A stretch of 53,171 nucleotides of DNA from a virus (IMGVR_UViG_2721755711_000003:1-53171); one strand, 5' to 3'. Positions 1 to 45,443 are shown, counted from the first letter of the stretch. Program-made: numbers and translations. Notes: generated by a model not told the origin, from the letters alone.

Positions 1-1236
1 CTACGATAACCGCGCATTCAACATGGCTACCTGTTCGTCGTTCATGTCATCAATCCACATACCGTAAATTTCATACACCATCTGCGCAGTTTCATGCCCC
101 ATCTGGCTGGCTATAAATGCCGGGTTCGCTCCTGCCGTCAACAGCCAGCAGGCAAAAGTATGCCGCGTATGGTACGGATTACGGCGGCGAATACCAGCAC
201 GTTTTACTGCTGCATTCCACCTTGCCCCCAAACTGCTTACCGAGTAATAAGGTTTCTGTTTTCCGTTACACATCCTGGGCATGAAAACAAAATGCAGTTT
301 TTGCTTTTCGGTTCTGCCGTACTCCCTATGATAAAAGGTGATTTCGCTTTTGCGATGATGTCCGGTCAGTTTGTATTGCTCCTTCAGTGCTTCAAGAGCA
401 GGCTGCAGTAGTGTTACTGTCCGGATCCCGGCATTTGTTTTTGGGGGACCGAACATATCAAGTATCGTCAGGTTTCTTCTGACATTCACAATTCCCTTCT
501 CGAGATCCACATCCTCCCACGCCAGAGCTGCCAGTTCCCCGTGACGAAGTCCTGAGTAAACGGCAAATTTCCACAAGTTCTGGCTCTGTCCTTTTTCACT
601 TTCCATTAATGCATTGAATTCTGTTTTAGATAACGGGTCAGGCTTTATTCTGTTTCGCTGTAATTTTTTTACTCCTTCAAATGGTTTGGTTGATATAAAT
701 CCCGACTGATACGCAAAACGTAACAACGAACAGAGTAGGGCGATATAGTTATCAACTGTGCGTACGGTTCTTCCTTTTTTGTTGGATCTTGGATTATCCA
801 GGTAAAGCGTTTCTCCATGCAGCAGTTCATTCCGGTAGTTTAAGATATCGCTATAACGAATATGCGATATCGGGGTACTCTCACAAATTATTATCTTGAG
901 TGTTTTTAATTGTGATTTCGTTTTCTTCATTGTGTTTGTTGTTAACTCTGTCTCTTTAATTTTTGTCCAGATATCACAAAGCTCCCCGAACGTTTTTATG
1001 ACCCTAGTTGTCACCATTTTTGCTCCAGTGCTGGACTGGGGGAAACGTCTTAAATACTCAAATTCACCGGAATTGATTTCATGAACTATCAACGCTCTTA
1101 AATTCCCGGCTTTTTTAATGTTACTGTTAGTAACCTCCCAGCCTTTCAATGTTTCCCGGCATCGTTTTCCTCGAAACATGAACCAGATGCGAATGTATTT
1201 ACCTCGAATCTCGACACCTGTTGGTAATTTAGACAT
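1..1236 (-). CDS. int: phage integrase (tyrosine recombinase family)
   Basis: 411-aa minus-strand ORF ending at the window edge; sequence character and position next to an excisionase-like ORF match Rac/lambdoid integrases. attL would lie outside the window. Confidence 0.8.
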   Translation of the reverse strand: MSKLPTGVEIRGKYIRIWFMFRGKRCRETLKGWEVTNSNIKKAGNLRALIVHEINSGEFEYLRRFPQSSTGAKMVTTRVIKTFGELCDIWTKIKETELTTNTMKKTKSQLKTLKIIICESTPISHIRYSDILNYRNELLHGETLYLDNPRSNKKGRTVRTVDNYIALLCSLLRFAYQSGFISTKPFEGVKKLQRNRIKPDPLSKTEFNALMESEKGQSQNLWKFAVYSGLRHGELAALAWEDVDLEKGIVNVRRNLTILDMFGPPKTNAGIRTVTLLQPALEALKEQYKLTGHHRKSEITFYHREYGRTEKQKLHFVFMPRMCNGKQKPYYSVSSLGARWNAAVKRAGIRRRNPYHTRHTFACWLLTAGANPAFIASQMGHETAQMVYEIYGMWIDDMNDEQVAMLNARLS

Positions 1237-13012: not shown

Positions 13013-13149
13013 ATATGTTCTGGATAATCAAAATTGAGCTGTTTGTTATTGTTTTCCTGATCAGTGCATTTCTTGCGTATTTTCATGAAAGGAGATCACT
13101 CAATAACTGAACCGCCCCGGGTTTCCTGGAGAGTGTTTTATCTGTGAAC

Positions 13150-14040
13150 TCAGGCTGCCAGATCATCGTTTCCGATGGAAGCATAATAAGCTTTTTCTGC
13201 TTCTGCCGGTGGGATATGGCCCAGCCTTTCCAGCAATCGTCGATTGTTATACCAGTCCACCCACGTGAGTGTGGACAGCTCCACTTCTGTCCGGTTTTTC
13301 CAGCGCTTACGGTGTATTACCTCCGCTTTGTAAAGGCCATTGATGCTCTCCGCCATCGCGTTGTCATACGAGTCACCAGTACTCCCTGTTGATGCCAGTA
13401 AGCCGGCTTCCTTAAGCCGCTGCGTGTAGGCCAGCGATACATACTGAGAACCTTTATCACTGTGGTGGATTGTGCCGGACGGCCGACGGGCCCACAACGC
13501 CTGCTCCAGTGCATCCAGCACGAATGCCGTTTCCATGGATGATGAGACCCGCCATCCCACGATGTATCCGGCGAACACATCAATGATGAACGCCACATAA
13601 ACGAAGCCCTGCCATGTGTTTACCCAGGTAAAATCAGCCACCCACAACTGGTCAGGACGTTCTGCCACGAACTGACGGTTTACGCGGTCGCATGCGGCAA
13701 CGGCTTTCCGGCTGACGGTAGTGCGGACCTTTTTACCCCGGAGAACACCGGCAAGTCCCATAACCGCCATGAGACGTGCCACAGTGCATCTGGCCACTCT
13801 GATACCTTCCCGTAACAACTGACGCCAGACTTTACGCACACCGTATACCTGGTGATTTTCATCGTATACGCGCTGTATCTCTTTCTTCAGCCAGTCATCG
13901 CGCTGCGCACGGGCACTGCGTTTATCAGGATGATGTCGCTGTTGCTGACAGTGGTAATACGTTGACGGGGCAATATGCAGTTCGCTGCATACCGGTCCGA
14001 CCCCGTACTGCTCACGCAGCTTATCCAGCAGTGGCATCAT
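13150..14040 (-). CDS. IS3-family transposase OrfB (integrase core)
   Basis: 296-aa ORF with a DDE-type transposase core, overlapping orfA in the arrangement expected for a -1 frameshift fusion. Confidence 0.85.
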
Positions 14041-14363
14041 TTTTTCCAGAGGCGGTCGAACTCCGCCTTCGCAAAATAAGCGGAAGCCTGGCGAAGGATA
14101 TCGTTACTGCGGCGCAGTTCACGATTTTCACGTTCCAGCTCTTTCAGACGCTGACGTTCAGCGGTGGTGAGCCCACCATCACCGCCCCCGGTATCCCGCT
14201 CATGCTGGCGAACCCAGACACGCAGAGTCTCCGGCGTACAGCCAATTTTTGGGGCAATGGAACAAATTGCCGCCCACTGTGAATCATACTCATCCTGACT
14301 TTCCAGAACCATACGAATCGCTCGCTGACGGACTTCGGGGGAAAAACGAGTATTTTTAGTCAT
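14037..14363 (-). CDS. IS3-family transposase OrfA (HTH)
   Basis: 108-aa ORF with HTH and leucine-zipper-like C-terminus, starting just inside the IS629 right inverted repeat. Confidence 0.8.
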
Positions 14364-14578
14364 CCTGTTTACCTCTTTCTCAGGGAGTTTAGTCTCCAGG
14401 ATTCCCGGGACGGTTCAACTTCCATCGAGATCGGGTAATAACATTTGAACAGATCGCTGAATAACATCGATGGAGATCACTTTTGACTCATTTTGTTATT
14501 CAGTGATCTCCATCAATGTTATTGGAACTTCACAGGTGTGTTGATCTGTATCTTTTGCCATTCCGGTAAAGGATACCT

Positions 14579-16120
14579 ATGCCAACAGTTCCAATTTCTA
14601 TGAGAAAACTTAAAGAAATTCTTAGGCTTAAATACGGTGTTGGACTCAGCCATCGACAAATTGGTCGTAGTCTTGCAATCTCCCCTTCCGTTGTATCCAG
14701 ATATGCTAATCGGGCGGCTCAACTTGGCATAAAGCAGTGGCCCTTACCTACAGGATGGGATGATACAAAACTAAAACATGCGTTCCTTCAGACCCAGGTT
14801 AAGATGAAGAAGCACTCTCTGCCTGACTGGGCTACAGTACACCGGGAACTGCGTAATAAATGCGTGACGCTGCAGCTACTCTGGGAAGAATACTGTGAGC
14901 GTAATCCAGGCGGTTTTTACAGCTATAACCATTACTGCCGGATGTACCGTGAATGGCTCAAAACCACTTCACCATCAATGCGTCAGGTACATAAAGCTGG
15001 CGAAAAACTTTTCGTTGATTACTGTGGACCTACCGTTGGCGTTACCGACCCTGAGACCGGAGAAATAAGAACTGCTCAGGTCATCGTAGCTGTTCTCGGG
15101 GCATCAAGTTACACATGGGCAGAGGCCACCTGGTCTCAGCAGCTTGAAGACTGGGTGATGAGTCATGTTCGCTGCTTCCAGTGGTTGGGTGGCGTTCCTG
15201 AACTTGTTGTTCCGGACAATCTGAAAAGCGCCACATCCAGGGCATGTAAGTATGATCCTGACGTTAACCCTACCTACCAGCAGATGCTTGAGCATTATAA
15301 TGTCGCAGTTTTGCCTGCGCGGCCACGTAAACCGAAAGATAAAGCCAAAGCTGAAGTTGGCGTTCAGGTTGTTGAACGCTGGATCATGGCCCGAATCAGG
15401 CATGAGATCTTCTACAGCCTTGCATCGCTTAATCAGCGCATTCGGGAGTTGCTGGAAAGACTGAATAACAAAATAATGCAGAAGTTGGGTTATTCACGTG
15501 CAGAACTCTTCATCCAGCTTGATAAACCCGCACTGAAGCCTCTTCCTGAAGCCAGTTACAGTTACACCCTGGTGAAGAAAGTCAGAGTTCATGCCGATTA
15601 CCACGTGGAAATCGACAAACATTACTACTCGGTTCCATGTTCGCTGTTAGGCCAGCAACTGGAAGCATGGATCTCCGGAGAACTGGTAAGACTCTTCAAT
15701 CAGGGGCAGGAGGTTGCTGTGCACCCGCGCAAGCGTACTTATGGCTACAGTACCCGCAACGAGCACATGCCTGAAGCTCATCGACAGCATGCCACCTGGA
15801 CGCCAGAGCGTCTTCTGGAATGGGCGGGGCACATAGGCAGTGAAACTCATAGTTATGTGCTTCATATACTGAACTCTCGTCCACATCCGGAACAAAGCTA
15901 TCGCTTCTGCCTTGGACTCCTGAACCTTCATAAAAAATACAGTAAAGCCAGACTTAATGCAGCATGTGCAAGAGCTCTGAAAACAAAGGTATGGCGTCTG
16001 TCAGGTATTAAATCGATCCTGGAAAAAGGTCTGGATAAACAACCTGTTCAGGATCCAAAACCAGATCTGTTATCCACGATGGAACACGAAAACGTACGCG
16101 GCAGTGAGTATTACCACTGA
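14579..16120 (+). CDS. istA: IS21-family transposase IstA
   Basis: 513-aa ORF with N-terminal HTH and a DDE-type core, followed by an IstB-like ATPase gene. Confidence 0.75.
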   Translation: MPTVPISMRKLKEILRLKYGVGLSHRQIGRSLAISPSVVSRYANRAAQLGIKQWPLPTGWDDTKLKHAFLQTQVKMKKHSLPDWATVHRELRNKCVTLQLLWEEYCERNPGGFYSYNHYCRMYREWLKTTSPSMRQVHKAGEKLFVDYCGPTVGVTDPETGEIRTAQVIVAVLGASSYTWAEATWSQQLEDWVMSHVRCFQWLGGVPELVVPDNLKSATSRACKYDPDVNPTYQQMLEHYNVAVLPARPRKPKDKAKAEVGVQVVERWIMARIRHEIFYSLASLNQRIRELLERLNNKIMQKLGYSRAELFIQLDKPALKPLPEASYSYTLVKKVRVHADYHVEIDKHYYSVPCSLLGQQLEAWISGELVRLFNQGQEVAVHPRKRTYGYSTRNEHMPEAHRQHATWTPERLLEWAGHIGSETHSYVLHILNSRPHPEQSYRFCLGLLNLHKKYSKARLNAACARALKTKVWRLSGIKSILEKGLDKQPVQDPKPDLLSTMEHENVRGSEYYH

Positions 16121-16131
16121 TACGGGATCCA

Positions 16132-16881
16132 ATGATGAATCATCTTTACGAACAACTGACCGCACTTAAACTCACCGGCTTCCGTGATGCGCTTAAAAAG
16201 CAACTTGCTCAGCCGGGCACATACCAGGAGCTGGGCTTCGAAGAACGCCTGTCATTACTGACAGCAGAAGAACTAACCTGCCGTGAAAACAGGAAGGCAG
16301 AGCGTCTGATCAAACATGCACGGTTCAGACTTAATGCTGAGTTATCAAAGCTGGATTATCGTAACAATAGAGGGCTGGACAGGGCCCTCATCCGTTCACT
16401 CAGTCAGGGAAACTGGTTAACCCTGAAACAAAATATTTTACTGACCGGGGCCACCGGCAGCGGTAAAACGTTCCTGGCATGTGCACTTGGTCATAATGCC
16501 TGCCGACAGGGATACAAGGTCTACTATTATCGCCTTAAAGCGCTGATGGAACAGTGCTATCAGGGGCATGCTGATGGAAGATACAGCAAACTTTTGACCA
16601 GGCTGAATAATAGCGATCTGCTGCTTCTGGATGACTGGGGGCTGGAACCTCTCTCATCAGAACAGCGTAGCGACCTGCTGGAAATAGTGGATCTGATGTA
16701 CCAACGAGGCTCAATCATCGTAGTGAGCCAGTTGCCGGTGGAAAACTGGTACAAAATGATCGGAGACTCCACACATGCGGATGCCATCCTAGATCGACTG
16801 GTTCATGGCAGTATCAAGATCGAACTTAAAGGAGAATCAATGCGGAAAATACAATCTCCGTTGACCGAAGGAGATCAGTGA
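16132..16881 (+). CDS. istB: IS21-family helper ATPase IstB
   Basis: 249-aa ORF with Walker A (LTGATGSGKT) and Walker B (LLLLDDWG) motifs. Confidence 0.8.
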   Translation: MMNHLYEQLTALKLTGFRDALKKQLAQPGTYQELGFEERLSLLTAEELTCRENRKAERLIKHARFRLNAELSKLDYRNNRGLDRALIRSLSQGNWLTLKQNILLTGATGSGKTFLACALGHNACRQGYKVYYYRLKALMEQCYQGHADGRYSKLLTRLNNSDLLLLDDWGLEPLSSEQRSDLLEIVDLMYQRGSIIVVSQLPVENWYKMIGDSTHADAILDRLVHGSIKIELKGESMRKIQSPLTEGDQ

Positions 16882-17102
16882 AGGTAATTTAAAAACGGTT
16901 CTGTGAAAGTGACACGAACCGATCTCCATCGATGTTACTCACCGATCTCCTTCACGGTAATACGCATTTCTGGCAGCGGCTTTTATTATCTGGGAAAATC
17001 CTTTTCGACATATCAGTCCACTGTTTGCAATCAGGGTGTTAATAGCATCGGTTGTAGTGGTGTGGTTAATTTGTTTTGCATTATTTTAATGGAGTTAATG
17101 TT

Positions 17103-17714: not shown

Positions 17715-18077
17715 ATGGCGACTTTGACCAAAGAAGAACGGTTTACCAAAGAGCAGTTAATAGCCCACGCAGAGGAGGCTATTGAATCACAGAGACTGTG
17801 CATACCAGGCACAATCGACCATGACCTCATTCGCGCATATAAGATGGATATTGCTGTTCTGGAAATTGCACTGCAATCGCTGGCAGCAGCGCCAGTTGGT
17901 AAATTTTATGAATACAAACCAGTGGGGTATCAGCGTCTGGTCGACGAGTTAACTATGCAGGTAAAGCAGTTAGCCTGGCAACTGAGGAAAGCGAAGCCGG
18001 ACTGCAAACTGCCGGATAAGGCGATGGACTACCTGGAGCGAAACGGACTGACAAGCGTGGAGGATGTTTTACGATGA
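17715..18077 (+). CDS. hypothetical phage protein
   Basis: 120-aa ORF, contiguous with the upstream gene. Confidence 0.45.
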
Positions 18078-18157
18078 CCTGGCCTGAAGCATTCACAACG
18101 GCAGGAATTGCGATGGCGGTGGCGCTGGTGGTGTATTCGATTTTCTGCTGGGGATAA
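18074..18157 (+). CDS. small hydrophobic peptide
   Basis: 27-aa ORF ([27 protein letters not shown]) whose ATG overlaps the upstream stop (ATGA); one predicted transmembrane segment. Confidence 0.25.
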
Positions 18158-18163
18158 CAAAAG

Positions 18164-18187
18164 CCAGCCCATTAGGGCTGGTTTTTT
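18164..18187 (+). terminator. rho-independent terminator
   Basis: CCAGCCC / GGGCTGG stem, ATTA loop, then TTTTTT; shared by the convergent genes on either side. Confidence 0.55.
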
Positions 18188-18473
18188 AAAGAGGTAGCTT
18201 CATGATGGCTGCCAGTGCGCCAACAGCAACGACGAGCATCCCGCCAAATCTGACAGTCAGTTGCAGGGTGAGTTTATCAATTTTTGCATCAATGGCAGCA
18301 ATGTCATTTTTTAGTTCAGTTTTAACATCGTTCAGGTCGCGCTTTGTAGCGACTTCTGCCGCTTCGTGAGAATCCTTTACTGCAGCAGATATGGCGCGAG
18401 CTTGTGCTGCAGGCATTCCGGCGGCTTCTAGGGTTTCAACGAATTTCAGAGTATCAAAATAGACCTGAGCCAT
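18186..18473 (-). CDS. coiled-coil membrane-anchored protein (DUF1640-like)
   Basis: 95-aa ORF, helical N-terminal part and hydrophobic C-terminal segment (MLVVAVGALAAIMKL). Confidence 0.45.
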   Translation of the reverse strand: MAQVYFDTLKFVETLEAAGMPAAQARAISAAVKDSHEAAEVATKRDLNDVKTELKNDIAAIDAKIDKLTLQLTVRFGGMLVVAVGALAAIMKLPL

Positions 18474-18674
18474 GGTATTAAGTCCTTCGTTGTTGGGGAA
18501 TGTTGTTATTTTAGCTTGTTATGTCTGTTGACGACAACAGACATCCGGGGCTATAGCACTATAAAACCGTTTAGGAGTAGCATGGCTGGGGTGTTGTCAG
18601 CAATGAGCAATTGGTGGTGTGATGCGGTTGTGATGATAAGAAGAACAATACCCCCCCGTGGGATTGTGGAGGGA

Positions 18675-18845
18675 TTATTTATTGGGTGTATTGATGTCTT
18701 GAAGAGTGACTTTTATTTCTTCACCTGAATCTGCATTTTTGAGGACATATACAATGTCGTCATTAAGAATGTGCACTACGAGCCATTCTCCATCTTTTTC
18801 ACGTAAGTGAACGATACTGCCTGTTGATATGCCATGAACGGTCAT
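18675..18845 (-). CDS. hypothetical small protein
   Basis: 56-aa ORF translated by hand (MTVHGISTGSIVHLREKDGEWLVVHILNDD...); weak ribosome-binding site. Confidence 0.25.
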   Translation of the reverse strand: MTVHGISTGSIVHLREKDGEWLVVHILNDDIVYVLKNADSGEEIKVTLQDINTPNK

Positions 18846-18931
18846 TTCTGCGTCTCTCGTGTTGTAGGTATAAGGTTAGTATAGCCAAGAATGCATGAAA
18901 GGCATAGCAGGCTATAAAGTAGCAAAAGGTG

Positions 18932-19069
18932 ATGTTAATCGTCCTGATCGTCATCTGTTTAACCGTCATAGTGACGACACTGGTAACGAGGAAAGACCTC
19001 TGTGAGGTACAAATCCGAATCGGTCAGACGGAGGTCGCTGTCTTTACAGCTTACGAACCTGAGGAGTAA
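18932..19069 (+). CDS. hok: Hok/Gef-family type I toxin (hokD/relF-like)
   Basis: Hand translation MLIVLIVICLTVIVTTLVTRKDLCEVQIRIGQTEVAVFTAYEPEE closely matches Hok/Gef toxins as recalled from memory; an in-frame TAG lies just upstream; followed by a fold-back hairpin and terminator. Confidence 0.6.
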   Translation: MLIVLIVICLTVIVTTLVTRKDLCEVQIRIGQTEVAVFTAYEPEE

Positions 19070-19138
19070 GAGACCTGGCGGGAGAGAAATCTCCCGCCTC
19101 CTCTGATGTGTCAGGCATCTTCAACGCCCCCGTACTTA

Positions 19139-19159
19139 ACCCGCTTCGACGGGTTTTTT
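19139..19159 (+). terminator. rho-independent terminator downstream of hok
   Basis: ACCCG / CGGGT stem, CTTCGA loop, then TTTTTT. Confidence 0.55.
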
Positions 19160-19322
19160 GTTACGATTATTTTTAATCAAACAGGCTTTTTGTGTTTTTG
19201 TGATTTGTTGTTCTTGAGGCTAATTACGGGGGAAATAGAATCTCATTACTTGATTGGCGCGCAGGGAGAAGAGGGATGGCCCCCAAACAGGGGAAAGTTA
19301 TTTATCCAGAAGGATTCTGCTG

Positions 19323-19496
19323 ATGAAAATCGAAGAATTGCGTGAAATTTTTAGTGAAAATGGCCTCTATGCTGTGCGCGTTGAGAATGGGGAAGTTATC
19401 TACGCAACGTTAATTCCTGATGATCATGTAATTTTATCTATCGAGGCATTCATTGAATACCTGGAAAGGCTCGGTTTCAAGGTAGTTTGGGAATGA
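19323..19496 (+). CDS. hypothetical small protein
   Basis: ATG 19323 with AAGGA upstream; 57 aa. Confidence 0.35.
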   Translation: MKIEELREIFSENGLYAVRVENGEVIYATLIPDDHVILSIEAFIEYLERLGFKVVWE

Positions 19497-19555
19497 GTTA
19501 TAATTCGTAAGCCAGCCTGAACACCTGGCAACCTACAGCGCTATTGGAGAAAGCA

Positions 19556-20155
19556 ATGGCGCATATACAACTGGTCAAACAAACCTCTTCCGGATTACTT
19601 CTCCCGGCGACGCCGGAGAGTTGCGATTTTCTGTATCAAATCAAAATAGGTGAGTGGATACACGCAGACTTTAAGCGTGTGCGTAACTACGCATTCCACA
19701 AGCGTTTTTTCAAACTCCTGCAACTGGGATTCGATTACTGGACTCCGATCGGTGGGGCGATCACACCTCGAGAACGAGAAATGGTATCAGGATTCGTTGA
19801 TTACCTGTGTGAATCAGTAGGCCGGGAACATACGCCAGCTCTGAGCGAAGCCGCAGAGCAATATCTGAATACAGTTGCGACACGCAGAACCCGGGATACG
19901 GCATTGCTTAAGTCATTTGACGCTTTCCGCGAGTGGGTAATCATTCAGGCCGGATTTTACACCGAGCATTTTTATCCGGATGGTAGCCGTGGGCGCAGGG
20001 CGAAATCAATCGCGTTTGCGAATATGGACGAAACCGAGTTTCAGCAGGTTTATAAATCTGTACTGAATGTGCTGTGGAACTGGATCCTGTTCCGTAAATT
20101 TTCCTCTCCGGAACAAGTCGAAAATGTGGCCGCGCAGCTGCTGGAGTTTGCGTAA
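19556..20155 (+). CDS. nin-region protein (DUF1367-like)
   Basis: ATG 19556 with GGAG 6 nt upstream (track ORF begins at a TTG); 199 aa; sits before the Q-like gene. Confidence 0.5.
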   Translation: MAHIQLVKQTSSGLLLPATPESCDFLYQIKIGEWIHADFKRVRNYAFHKRFFKLLQLGFDYWTPIGGAITPREREMVSGFVDYLCESVGREHTPALSEAAEQYLNTVATRRTRDTALLKSFDAFREWVIIQAGFYTEHFYPDGSRGRRAKSIAFANMDETEFQQVYKSVLNVLWNWILFRKFSSPEQVENVAAQLLEFA

Positions 20156-45111: not shown

Positions 45112-45183
45112 AACGACCTCACTGATTTTTTCGAATTTCCACTATCGGAGTGGAGCCGGGAGGTTCGAAACGGCTCAGTGAGG
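45112..45183 (-). promoter_or_regulatory. structured 5' leader of the antirepressor gene
   Basis: Perfect 9-bp inverted repeat (CCTCACTGA at 45117-45125, TCAGTGAGG at 45175-45183); one arm contains the GAGG ribosome-binding site; two internal hairpins. Confidence 0.4.
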
Positions 45184-45443
45184 CCGCGGACTTATTCCCC
45201 TTTCGGGTGTTGTATTCGTCGCCCTCCCGACATTGTTCGGGGATGTGACCGCACATTGTGCCATCACTAAATAGCAGGCATAAAAAATCCAACACTAACG
45301 GGGTTGGTTGTGACCGCACTGAGAAGAGGTTTCGACGCCTCATGCGCTTAATCATACTCAACTGGGCGCGGTTGTAAAGTATGAACTTGAACGGACATTA
45401 AGAATGGGTAAAATTTAATCTCCTGTTTTTAAGGAGATTACGG

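Follow-up and report, generated by a model that had tools for sequence, protein, structure and literature searches.

A sok-less hokD-type remnant in a Rac-like prophage of Escherichia coli, probably inactivated by a 5' deletion and start-codon mutations

The window, that is, the whole stretch of DNA analysed in this work, is the 53,171-nt viral sequence IMGVR_UViG_2721755711_000003, and the hok locus described here is found at 18,908-19,161. The DNA is from E. coli and corresponds to a Rac-like prophage at ttcA, whose gene content includes recE/recT, ralR, kilR, ydaS/ydaT and a P-like replication gene. Sharing the strand of the early genes, the hok locus occupies part of the nin region, and on its 3' side it is followed by DUF1367, DUF1364 and DUF1133 (Q-like) genes, tRNAs and the lysis genes. 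Canonical prophage hokD-type loci sit in this same nin slot, which has the replication genes on one side and the Q-type antiterminator on the other. The prophage of strain F2_407_2_2 is 98-99.9% identical to the window, which differs from it by an uninterrupted integrase ORF and by an extra 3.9-kb insertion with IS-like ORFs (13077-16963).

Several other elements were observed along the prophage. The integrase ORF (window 1-1236, minus strand, 411 aa) is unbroken, whereas in NZ_CP074756.1 (3164007-3166308) the same gene is split by IS903B, the comparison of this region revealing differing lesions of this prophage in different strains. With respect to the otherwise 99.8%-identical NZ_CP074756.1, the 3.9-kb insertion at 13077-16963 breaks the early/nin region upstream of the hok locus. 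A strong match to RalA (RF02694; 225 bits, gathering score 170) is found at 1557-1735 on the plus strand. In the RalR/RalA type I system of the Rac prophage, RalA serves as the antitoxin RNA, and ralR is annotated in a near-identical genome; the prophage has one seemingly intact type I toxin–antitoxin system (RalR/RalA) besides the hok locus. In the late region there is a match to sRNA-Xcc1 (RF02221) at 45147-45231 on the minus strand (72 bits, gathering score 53). Finally, downstream of the hok terminator, a promoter-like TTGAGG-16-TAGAAT (19214-19241, plus strand) precedes a 57-aa ORF at 19323-19496 (plus strand; PHROG 340, E=9e-18), of which PGAP marks just the fragment 19323-19400 as a partial pseudogene and whose slot is that of rem in other backbones.

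The features of the hok locus, of its left neighbourhood and of the insertion are, in window coordinates:

13150-14040, minus strand: IS-like ORF in the insertion
13966-14082: ALIL frameshift pseudoknot (Rfam RF01497, 121 bits)
14579-16120, plus strand: IS-like ORF in the insertion
16132-16881, plus strand: IS-like ORF in the insertion
18675-18845, minus strand: small ORF of 56 aa, intact and conserved; left neighbour, outside the hok system, which defines the comparator loci
18846-18907, no strand: intergenic DNA of the left flank, up to the deletion junction 18907/18908; aligns to the comparator loci of E. coli M3 and CP55 to the right of the small ORF
18895-19005, plus strand: chimeric 36-codon frame, with an ATG from the left flank joined by the deletion, and ended by a derived TGA (19003-19005)
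18908-18913, plus strand: residual hok 5' UTR, its last 6 nt (CAGGCT), everything upstream being deleted
18914-18916, plus strand: former start codon of hok, ATA; ATG in 9/9 canonical loci compared, ATA in 11/11 allele copies
18920-18922, plus strand: former codon 3 (CAG, Gln), now stop TAG, in 11/11 allele copies
18929-19069, plus strand: residual Hok frame, from GTG 18929 or ATG 18932 (internal Met7 of HokD) to TAA; 46/45 aa, MKQQKA lost
19077-19098, plus strand: hairpin of 9 bp capped by a GAAA tetraloop; judging from its position, the last stem-loop that 3' processing of hok mRNA would leave
19119-19133, plus strand: fbi (fold-back inhibition) element, orphaned; derived substitutions at 19120, 19128 and 19133, its 5' partner tac deleted
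19138-19161, plus strand: intrinsic terminator of the former hok mRNA (stem 19138-19155 plus T-run)

The residual frame retains a clear Hok signature. It scored 75.8 bits against the Pfam HOK_GEF profile (PF01848; cut-off 22, E=1.9e-21), aligned over profile positions 2-42 of 42, and matched PHROG 251, ‘MokW-like host killing’, with E=1.6e-24 over positions 7-50 of 50; the peptide shares 91% identity with canonical HokD residues 7-51. By protein domain, the residual ORF is a Hok/Gef family member, and both the hokD/relF-like identity and the 45-aa ORF that an earlier note had proposed are borne out, with 46 or 45 aa depending on whether the frame is opened at 18929 or 18932. NCBIfam models were uninformative, as the 45-aa protein and the canonical 51-aa protein both remained under the cut-offs. 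No frameshift or internal stop occurs in the frame (18929-19069), but a transition to a stop is possible at only about 2 of its roughly 70 G/C sites, so that the absence of an internal stop is weak evidence against decay. In full-length Hok proteins, which number about 48-55 aa, the membrane helix is preceded by a short basic N-terminus; the residual ORF, which starts at Met7, is shorter and has lost this segment. RefSeq/PGAP takes the start at 18932 and presents the product, WP_072278258.1, as an intact ‘Hok/Gef family protein’, and likewise WP_072095544.1.

Where the canonical HokD start reads ATG AAG CAG CAA AAG GCG ATG, the window reads ATA AAG TAG CAA AAG GTG ATG. The N-terminal codons had been described as replaced by an in-frame TAG; the TAG at 18920-18922 is indeed there, whereas the codons themselves were mutated rather than replaced (ATG>ATA, CAG>TAG, GCG>GTG), the last of these changes creating the GTG candidate start at 18929. 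The AGGAG Shine–Dalgarno (SD) sequence of hok was lost via the deletion described below, and its ATG is now ATA. The predicted anti-SD pairing is -1.0 kcal/mol at both 18929 and 18932 and -0.7 kcal/mol at 18895, a level that equals the median of all ATGs in the window, compared with -8.5 kcal/mol for the hok start and -5.6 kcal/mol for the leader start in canonical controls. The residual 45-aa frame presumably undergoes no meaningful translation.

The frame that overlaps this region from 18895 on, which had been read as a possible mok-like leader, is real (18895-19005, 36 codons), but it is not such a leader: its ATG belongs to the flank, it has no SD and a derived TGA cuts it short, C>T at 19003 being nonsense in this frame and synonymous in hok. 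The chimeric frame shares its register with the mok annotated in phage Rac and overlaps the candidate hok starts; the Rac register arises only because of the way in which the deletion joined both sides.

Regarding transcription, a simple consensus match over both strands of 18538-19213 gave no sigma-70-like site, though such a scan cannot prove absence of transcription. The same consensus scan revealed no promoter-like site upstream of 19077 within the scanned stretch, and no antisense promoter at ~18880-18940, where the earlier note had suggested that one be sought. A -10-like TATACT spotted by eye on the minus strand (18883-18878), which is conserved with the M3 and CP55 loci, was rejected as an antisense promoter, as it is directed at the small ORF and not at hok, and lacks a usable -35.

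Alignment to other hok loci, also proposed in the earlier note, was run and revealed a 173-196-nt deletion. The comparators were defined by the left neighbour: homologues of the 18675-18845 ORF, with a protein identity of 66-70% (nucleotide ~75%), lie beside intact hokD in E. coli M3 (L004) and CP55 (L005). They are annotated as hypothetical there, the ORF itself is unannotated in the identical RefSeq genome, and it has no informative match in Pfam or PHROG. In both M3 and CP55 the same left neighbour is followed by a complete hok/sok locus with an intact 51-aa hokD. Compared with M3, 196 nt are missing from the window, and compared with CP55, 173 nt, the junction being at 18907/18908 with an AG microhomology. 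The window tracks the left flank of these loci to ...TGAAAGGCATAG (18907) and picks up again at CAGGCTAT, 6 nt ahead of the former start codon. The flank alignment reaches ...TGAAAGG(A)CATAG, with a score of 26.5 versus 10.5 for the hok SD side. Three bases at 18903-18905 had been considered as substitutions destroying the SD; re-alignment places them in the left flank, the SD having gone with the deletion. An apparent clustering of changes at the 5' side (p=0.0098 when these bases are counted) is not significant without them (p=0.18).

The same breakpoint is evident in BLAST comparisons. About 4,400 of the 5,426 complete E. coli genomes match at 90-95% identity, only from 18906 rightward, and phage records have the same sharp homology boundary as the genomes (18906); the full stretch 18700-19250 is present in eight of the 5,426. 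The likeness to hokD from 18906 onward far exceeds chance. No un-deleted ancestor with the same left flank at >=95% identity was found in these genomes, in IMG/VR or in JGI metagenomes, and one candidate for this role (L016) was discarded as a chance match of 26 nt.

The deleted stretch held a putative hok promoter, tac, the leader start, sok together with the site that it targets, and the AGGAG SD. Rfam sok (RF01794) matches four canonical loci (L003, L004, L007 and phage Rac, L006) with 111-115 bits (gathering score 59) over ~170 nt ending 6 nt into hok. In the window, it yields no match, either within 18000-20000 (E<=1) or, at the gathering score, over the entire sequence, and no second hok or trans-acting sok was found there. 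In the hokW-sokW system, the complementarity of sokW covers 71 nt of the hokW 5' UTR (Takada et al. 2021, PMC8621323), and the deleted stretch contains the positions of the published sokW probe and cloning primers. A -10-like TAGAAT/TAAAAT box, putatively the hok promoter, stands just upstream of the canonical mRNA 5' end and also falls inside the deletion.

The canonical leader ATG, with a GAGG SD, is located 57 nt upstream of hok and in five of six loci it is in the hok frame, giving 70-aa forms, whereas in phage Rac the leader ATG is 58 nt upstream, in the +1 frame, and is annotated as mok. A leader with its own SD, the translation of which is needed for that of hok, is therefore absent from the window, since the canonical ATG at -57/-58 lies inside the deletion. 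As a side observation, the leader ATG is at -57 in L003, L004, L005 and L007 and at -58 in Rac (L006), where a 1-nt indel gives the classical +1 mok frame, and N-terminally extended Hok proteins of 70 aa are annotated by NCBI on about a thousand or more contigs. It is worth a look whether the ‘Mok’ of most prophage hokD-type loci is perhaps really an extended Hok.

Canonical mRNAs of five loci were folded from the conserved 5' end through the terminator. In the minimum free energy structure, all five pair nt 1-14 (GCGGGUGCUUGAGG), corresponding to tac, with CCUCAACGCACCCGC, just upstream of the terminator, as in the tac-fbi fold-back mechanism of the hok family summarised in PMC9841398. Of this pair, the window retains fbi alone. 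The conserved 3' fold-back mentioned in the earlier note thus holds for the hairpin and the terminator and not for the true fbi (19119-19133), which has lost its partner and carries three substitutions; a sister sub-lineage has an additional 1-nt deletion at 19127, within fbi.

The rest of the 3' region, described beforehand as a GC-rich hairpin followed by a terminator, is present as such, with the hairpin at 19077-19098 and the terminator at 19138-19161. Across 12 loci the hairpin contains two covarying pairs (GC/GU/AU), and 98% of the alignment cells are paired; the only broken pairs are singletons, in two of the five distinct copies of the deleted allele. The compensatory changes may be older than the deletion. 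In hok of plasmid R1, the equivalent stem-loop shields the processed mRNA from exonucleases (PMC9841398). The fold of the 3' region has z=-4.0, none of 200 shuffles being as stable. The terminator is weakened in this allele at its UUCG loop, where the closing C-G pair is broken by 19149 G>A in all copies.

Sub-threshold matches to isrK (RF01394) were also observed in this region: window 19078-19159 (25.2 bits), L006 1673-1753, L007 1673-1754 and L015 530-611 (minus strand). In the hokD 3' UTRs of Rac, mEp460 and K-12 the scores range from 25 to 33 bits against a gathering score of 50, short of the threshold for IsrK membership. The likeness between the hokD 3' UTR (hairpin, spacer, terminator) and the Salmonella Gifsy-1 sRNA IsrK may be a structural coincidence or reflect a distant common origin; in the paper on IsrK, no connection with hok is drawn.

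The allele was found in 11 copies, eight in the 5,426 complete E. coli genomes and three in IMG/VR contigs, one of which was re-found in the metagenome scan. The junction and the lesions are identical in every copy and the allele therefore has a single origin. Two prophage backbones carry it: DUF1367/1364/1133 genes lie downstream in one, Rem-like and DUF968 genes in the other. The hosts come from the USA, Japan and the Gambia. There is one 45-aa protein cluster versus very many 51- and 70-aa forms, and among the complete genomes no alleles of 95-99% identity were found. The copies differ at one ORF site only, which leaves no power for detecting selection within the allele.

On the branch of this allele, the former CDS has acquired 10 derived substitutions, each of them a G:C>A:T transition. 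Of these, seven are non-synonymous or stop changes, versus 57% expected for random GC>AT transitions (p=0.53); the coding changes are consistent with neutrality, and purifying selection is undetectable. Over 18908-19160 we observed 18 derived changes, 15 of them GC>AT, all lying inside the remnant. Over the 120 nt that follow the terminator, there is no difference from the nearest canonical locus (p=0.0007). Three of the amino acid changes, A10V, A22T and T36I, each occur singly in intact alleles, and these sites look recurrent. Two intact alleles (P0002 and P0003) were rejected as relatives: they have single homoplasic sites in common with the deleted allele and none of its synonymous or 3'-UTR changes. 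The long AT-biased branch may stem from decay of a pseudogene, from mosaic ancestry or from a burst of mutation at this site.

A functional hok/sok system is absent here, as sok, the leader and its SD, tac, and the SD and start codon of hok have all been lost. We conclude that the locus is probably an inactivated, antitoxin-less remnant of hokD/hokW type that makes neither toxin nor antitoxin. The earlier note had left open a functional toxin or a decaying copy; the evidence favours the latter, and a functional toxin is disfavoured by the missing sok, SD and start. One ~173-196-nt deletion took the putative promoter, tac, the leader start, sok with its target and the hok SD, and in the same allele the start codon became ATA and codon 3 TAG. 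Most likely the toxin is no longer made, the antitoxin is not needed, and the 3' two-thirds of the hok locus decays neutrally while being carried in the nin region of the Rac-like prophage. The loss of sok may have made inactivation of the toxin necessary or advantageous, the order of the events being an inference. Several observations run counter to a remnant, namely the complete Hok domain, the persistence of the allele across backbones and countries, the hairpin kept perfectly paired by compensatory changes, and the occurrence of A10V, A22T and T36I in intact alleles; read-through from the phage early operon may also occur during induction. In a recent survey of Hok, about 10% of Hok CDSs have no recognisable SD (bioRxiv 10.1101/2025.08.07.668861).

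The lesions have laboratory counterparts. According to FASTBAC-Seq, a chromosomal hok without Sok is lethal, and its suppressors are mutations of the promoter, of the mok or hok start codon (2nd or 3rd position) and premature stops (PMC9841398). The window allele has matching lesion classes (loss of the putative promoter and of the leader, a third-position change of the start codon, a premature hok stop), which suggests that the loss of sok and the silencing of hok are causally linked. R1 hok/sok has the same architecture of tac-fbi, last 3' stem-loop and terminator, although R1 Hok is only about 44-50% identical, and the R1 suppressors are single laboratory-selected substitutions whereas several lesions are joined here in a natural allele.

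Among natural loci, hokW-sokW of Sakai prophage 5 and the canonical lambdoid hokD loci encode the same toxin family and occupy the same nin slot (PMC8621323). The window is homologous to the canonical hokD loci from codon 1 through the 3' hairpin, fbi and terminator, at about 92-94% nucleotide identity, but their putative promoter, tac, leader ATG and GAGG SD at -57/-58, sok, AGGAG and 51-aa ORF are all deleted or mutated in it. The closest natural parallel is hokD (relF) of the K-12 Qin prophage, which is also 5'-truncated and sok-less (no Rfam sok match), with the same 3' UTR, and in which the canonical homology starts at the SD, ~10 nt or less from the window breakpoint. The left flanks differ, and the window deletion is therefore independent of the K-12 event. 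Moreover, AGGAG, ATG and 51 codons are retained in K-12 hokD, which follows relE at a distance of 71 nt and is oriented alike, whereas the SD, the start and codon 3 are gone from the window allele, which is preceded by minus-strand genes. Over-expressed RelF is toxic. Pedersen and Gerdes are said to have found, in 1999, that K-12 hokA, hokB, hokC and hokE are inactivated by IS insertions, point mutations or rearrangements. These inactive K-12 loci and the degenerated CDSs of the Hok survey are, like the window allele, naturally disabled copies that persist in genomes; compared with the K-12 loci, the window has a clean microhomology deletion that removed the antitoxin together with all 5' control elements.

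Three other readings were weighed. It is unlikely, although it fares best among them, that a 45/46-aa Hok is still made after induction from N-antiterminated early (pR-type) read-through, as an antitoxin-free toxin or lysis helper like HokW of Sp5, possibly helped by ribosomes that translate the chimeric frame 18895-19005 across the Hok start. HokW appears only after induction and roughly doubles phage release (PMC8621323), and the intact Hok domain, the nin-region position on the early-gene strand, the spread of the allele over prophage backbones and the overlap of the chimeric frame with the candidate starts would all fit such a role. However, neither start nor the chimeric frame has an SD, and two minus-strand genes, a bidirectional terminator-like hairpin at ~18150-18180 and, in this window, the IS-bearing insertion all lie between the early promoter region and the locus. 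The basic N-terminus (K2, K5) is gone, and by the positive-inside rule membrane insertion could fail or invert; in addition, the substitutions are neutral in pattern and all tested Hoks have >=48 aa (bioRxiv 10.1101/2025.08.07.668861). In a narrower form, which we regard as very unlikely, the 45-aa Hok would be translated only from early-operon read-through after induction, the loss of promoter and sok having turned it into an antitoxin-free, transcriptionally gated lysis helper in which ATA and TAG force initiation at Met7.

It is quite unlikely that the 3' RNA part (19077-19161) has been retained in its own right, as a small RNA of weak IsrK-like resemblance, a terminator or a module boundary, with the coding part irrelevant. 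The recurrence of the sub-threshold isrK matches, the stable fold, the covariation in the hairpin and the 120 nt shared with a canonical locus beyond the terminator would be expected from such retention. Yet every isrK score is far under the gathering score, the IsrK paper ties nothing to hok, the simple consensus scan gave no promoter-like site upstream of 19077, and this allele has a broken loop-closing pair in the terminator and hairpin-breaking singletons in two of five distinct copies, while the known role of the hairpin in hok mRNA fully accounts for the covariation. Finally, the proposal of the earlier note that this is a working type I toxin–antitoxin locus, with a mok-like coupling frame and an unrecognised antisense RNA, is most improbable and largely refuted computationally: although the overlapping frame is in the Rac mok register and the hairpin and terminator are conserved, both an antisense RNA gene and a conserved coupling frame are absent, the sok region and the leader start with its SD being deleted, the minus strand having no promoter-like site by simple consensus scan, the flank-derived frame being truncated, and fold-back regulation being unable to operate since tac is gone.

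The locus is most likely an ordinary dead remnant and opens no new biology. Degenerate hok CDSs are a known minority, and a locus of this kind is known, although this deletion allele is absent from the literature searched. In the Hok survey, 5.1% of unique CDSs have fewer than 40 aa, 2.6% have internal stops and about 15% have no recognisable SD, the ‘degenerated’ CDSs being set aside (bioRxiv 10.1101/2025.08.07.668861); with 45 aa, the window ORF passes that length filter and would count as a Hok homologue. This is a caveat for annotation and counting, as protein-homology surveys with a 40-aa cut-off would count as a toxin a remnant that has no antitoxin, SD or start codon and no promoter-like site by consensus scan, and WP_072278258.1 and WP_072095544.1 are probably best treated as products of a pseudogene. 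The allele, in which the expression signals of the toxin were lost together with the antitoxin in one deletion and the start codon and codon 3 were mutated, is a natural counterpart of the laboratory suppressor screens.
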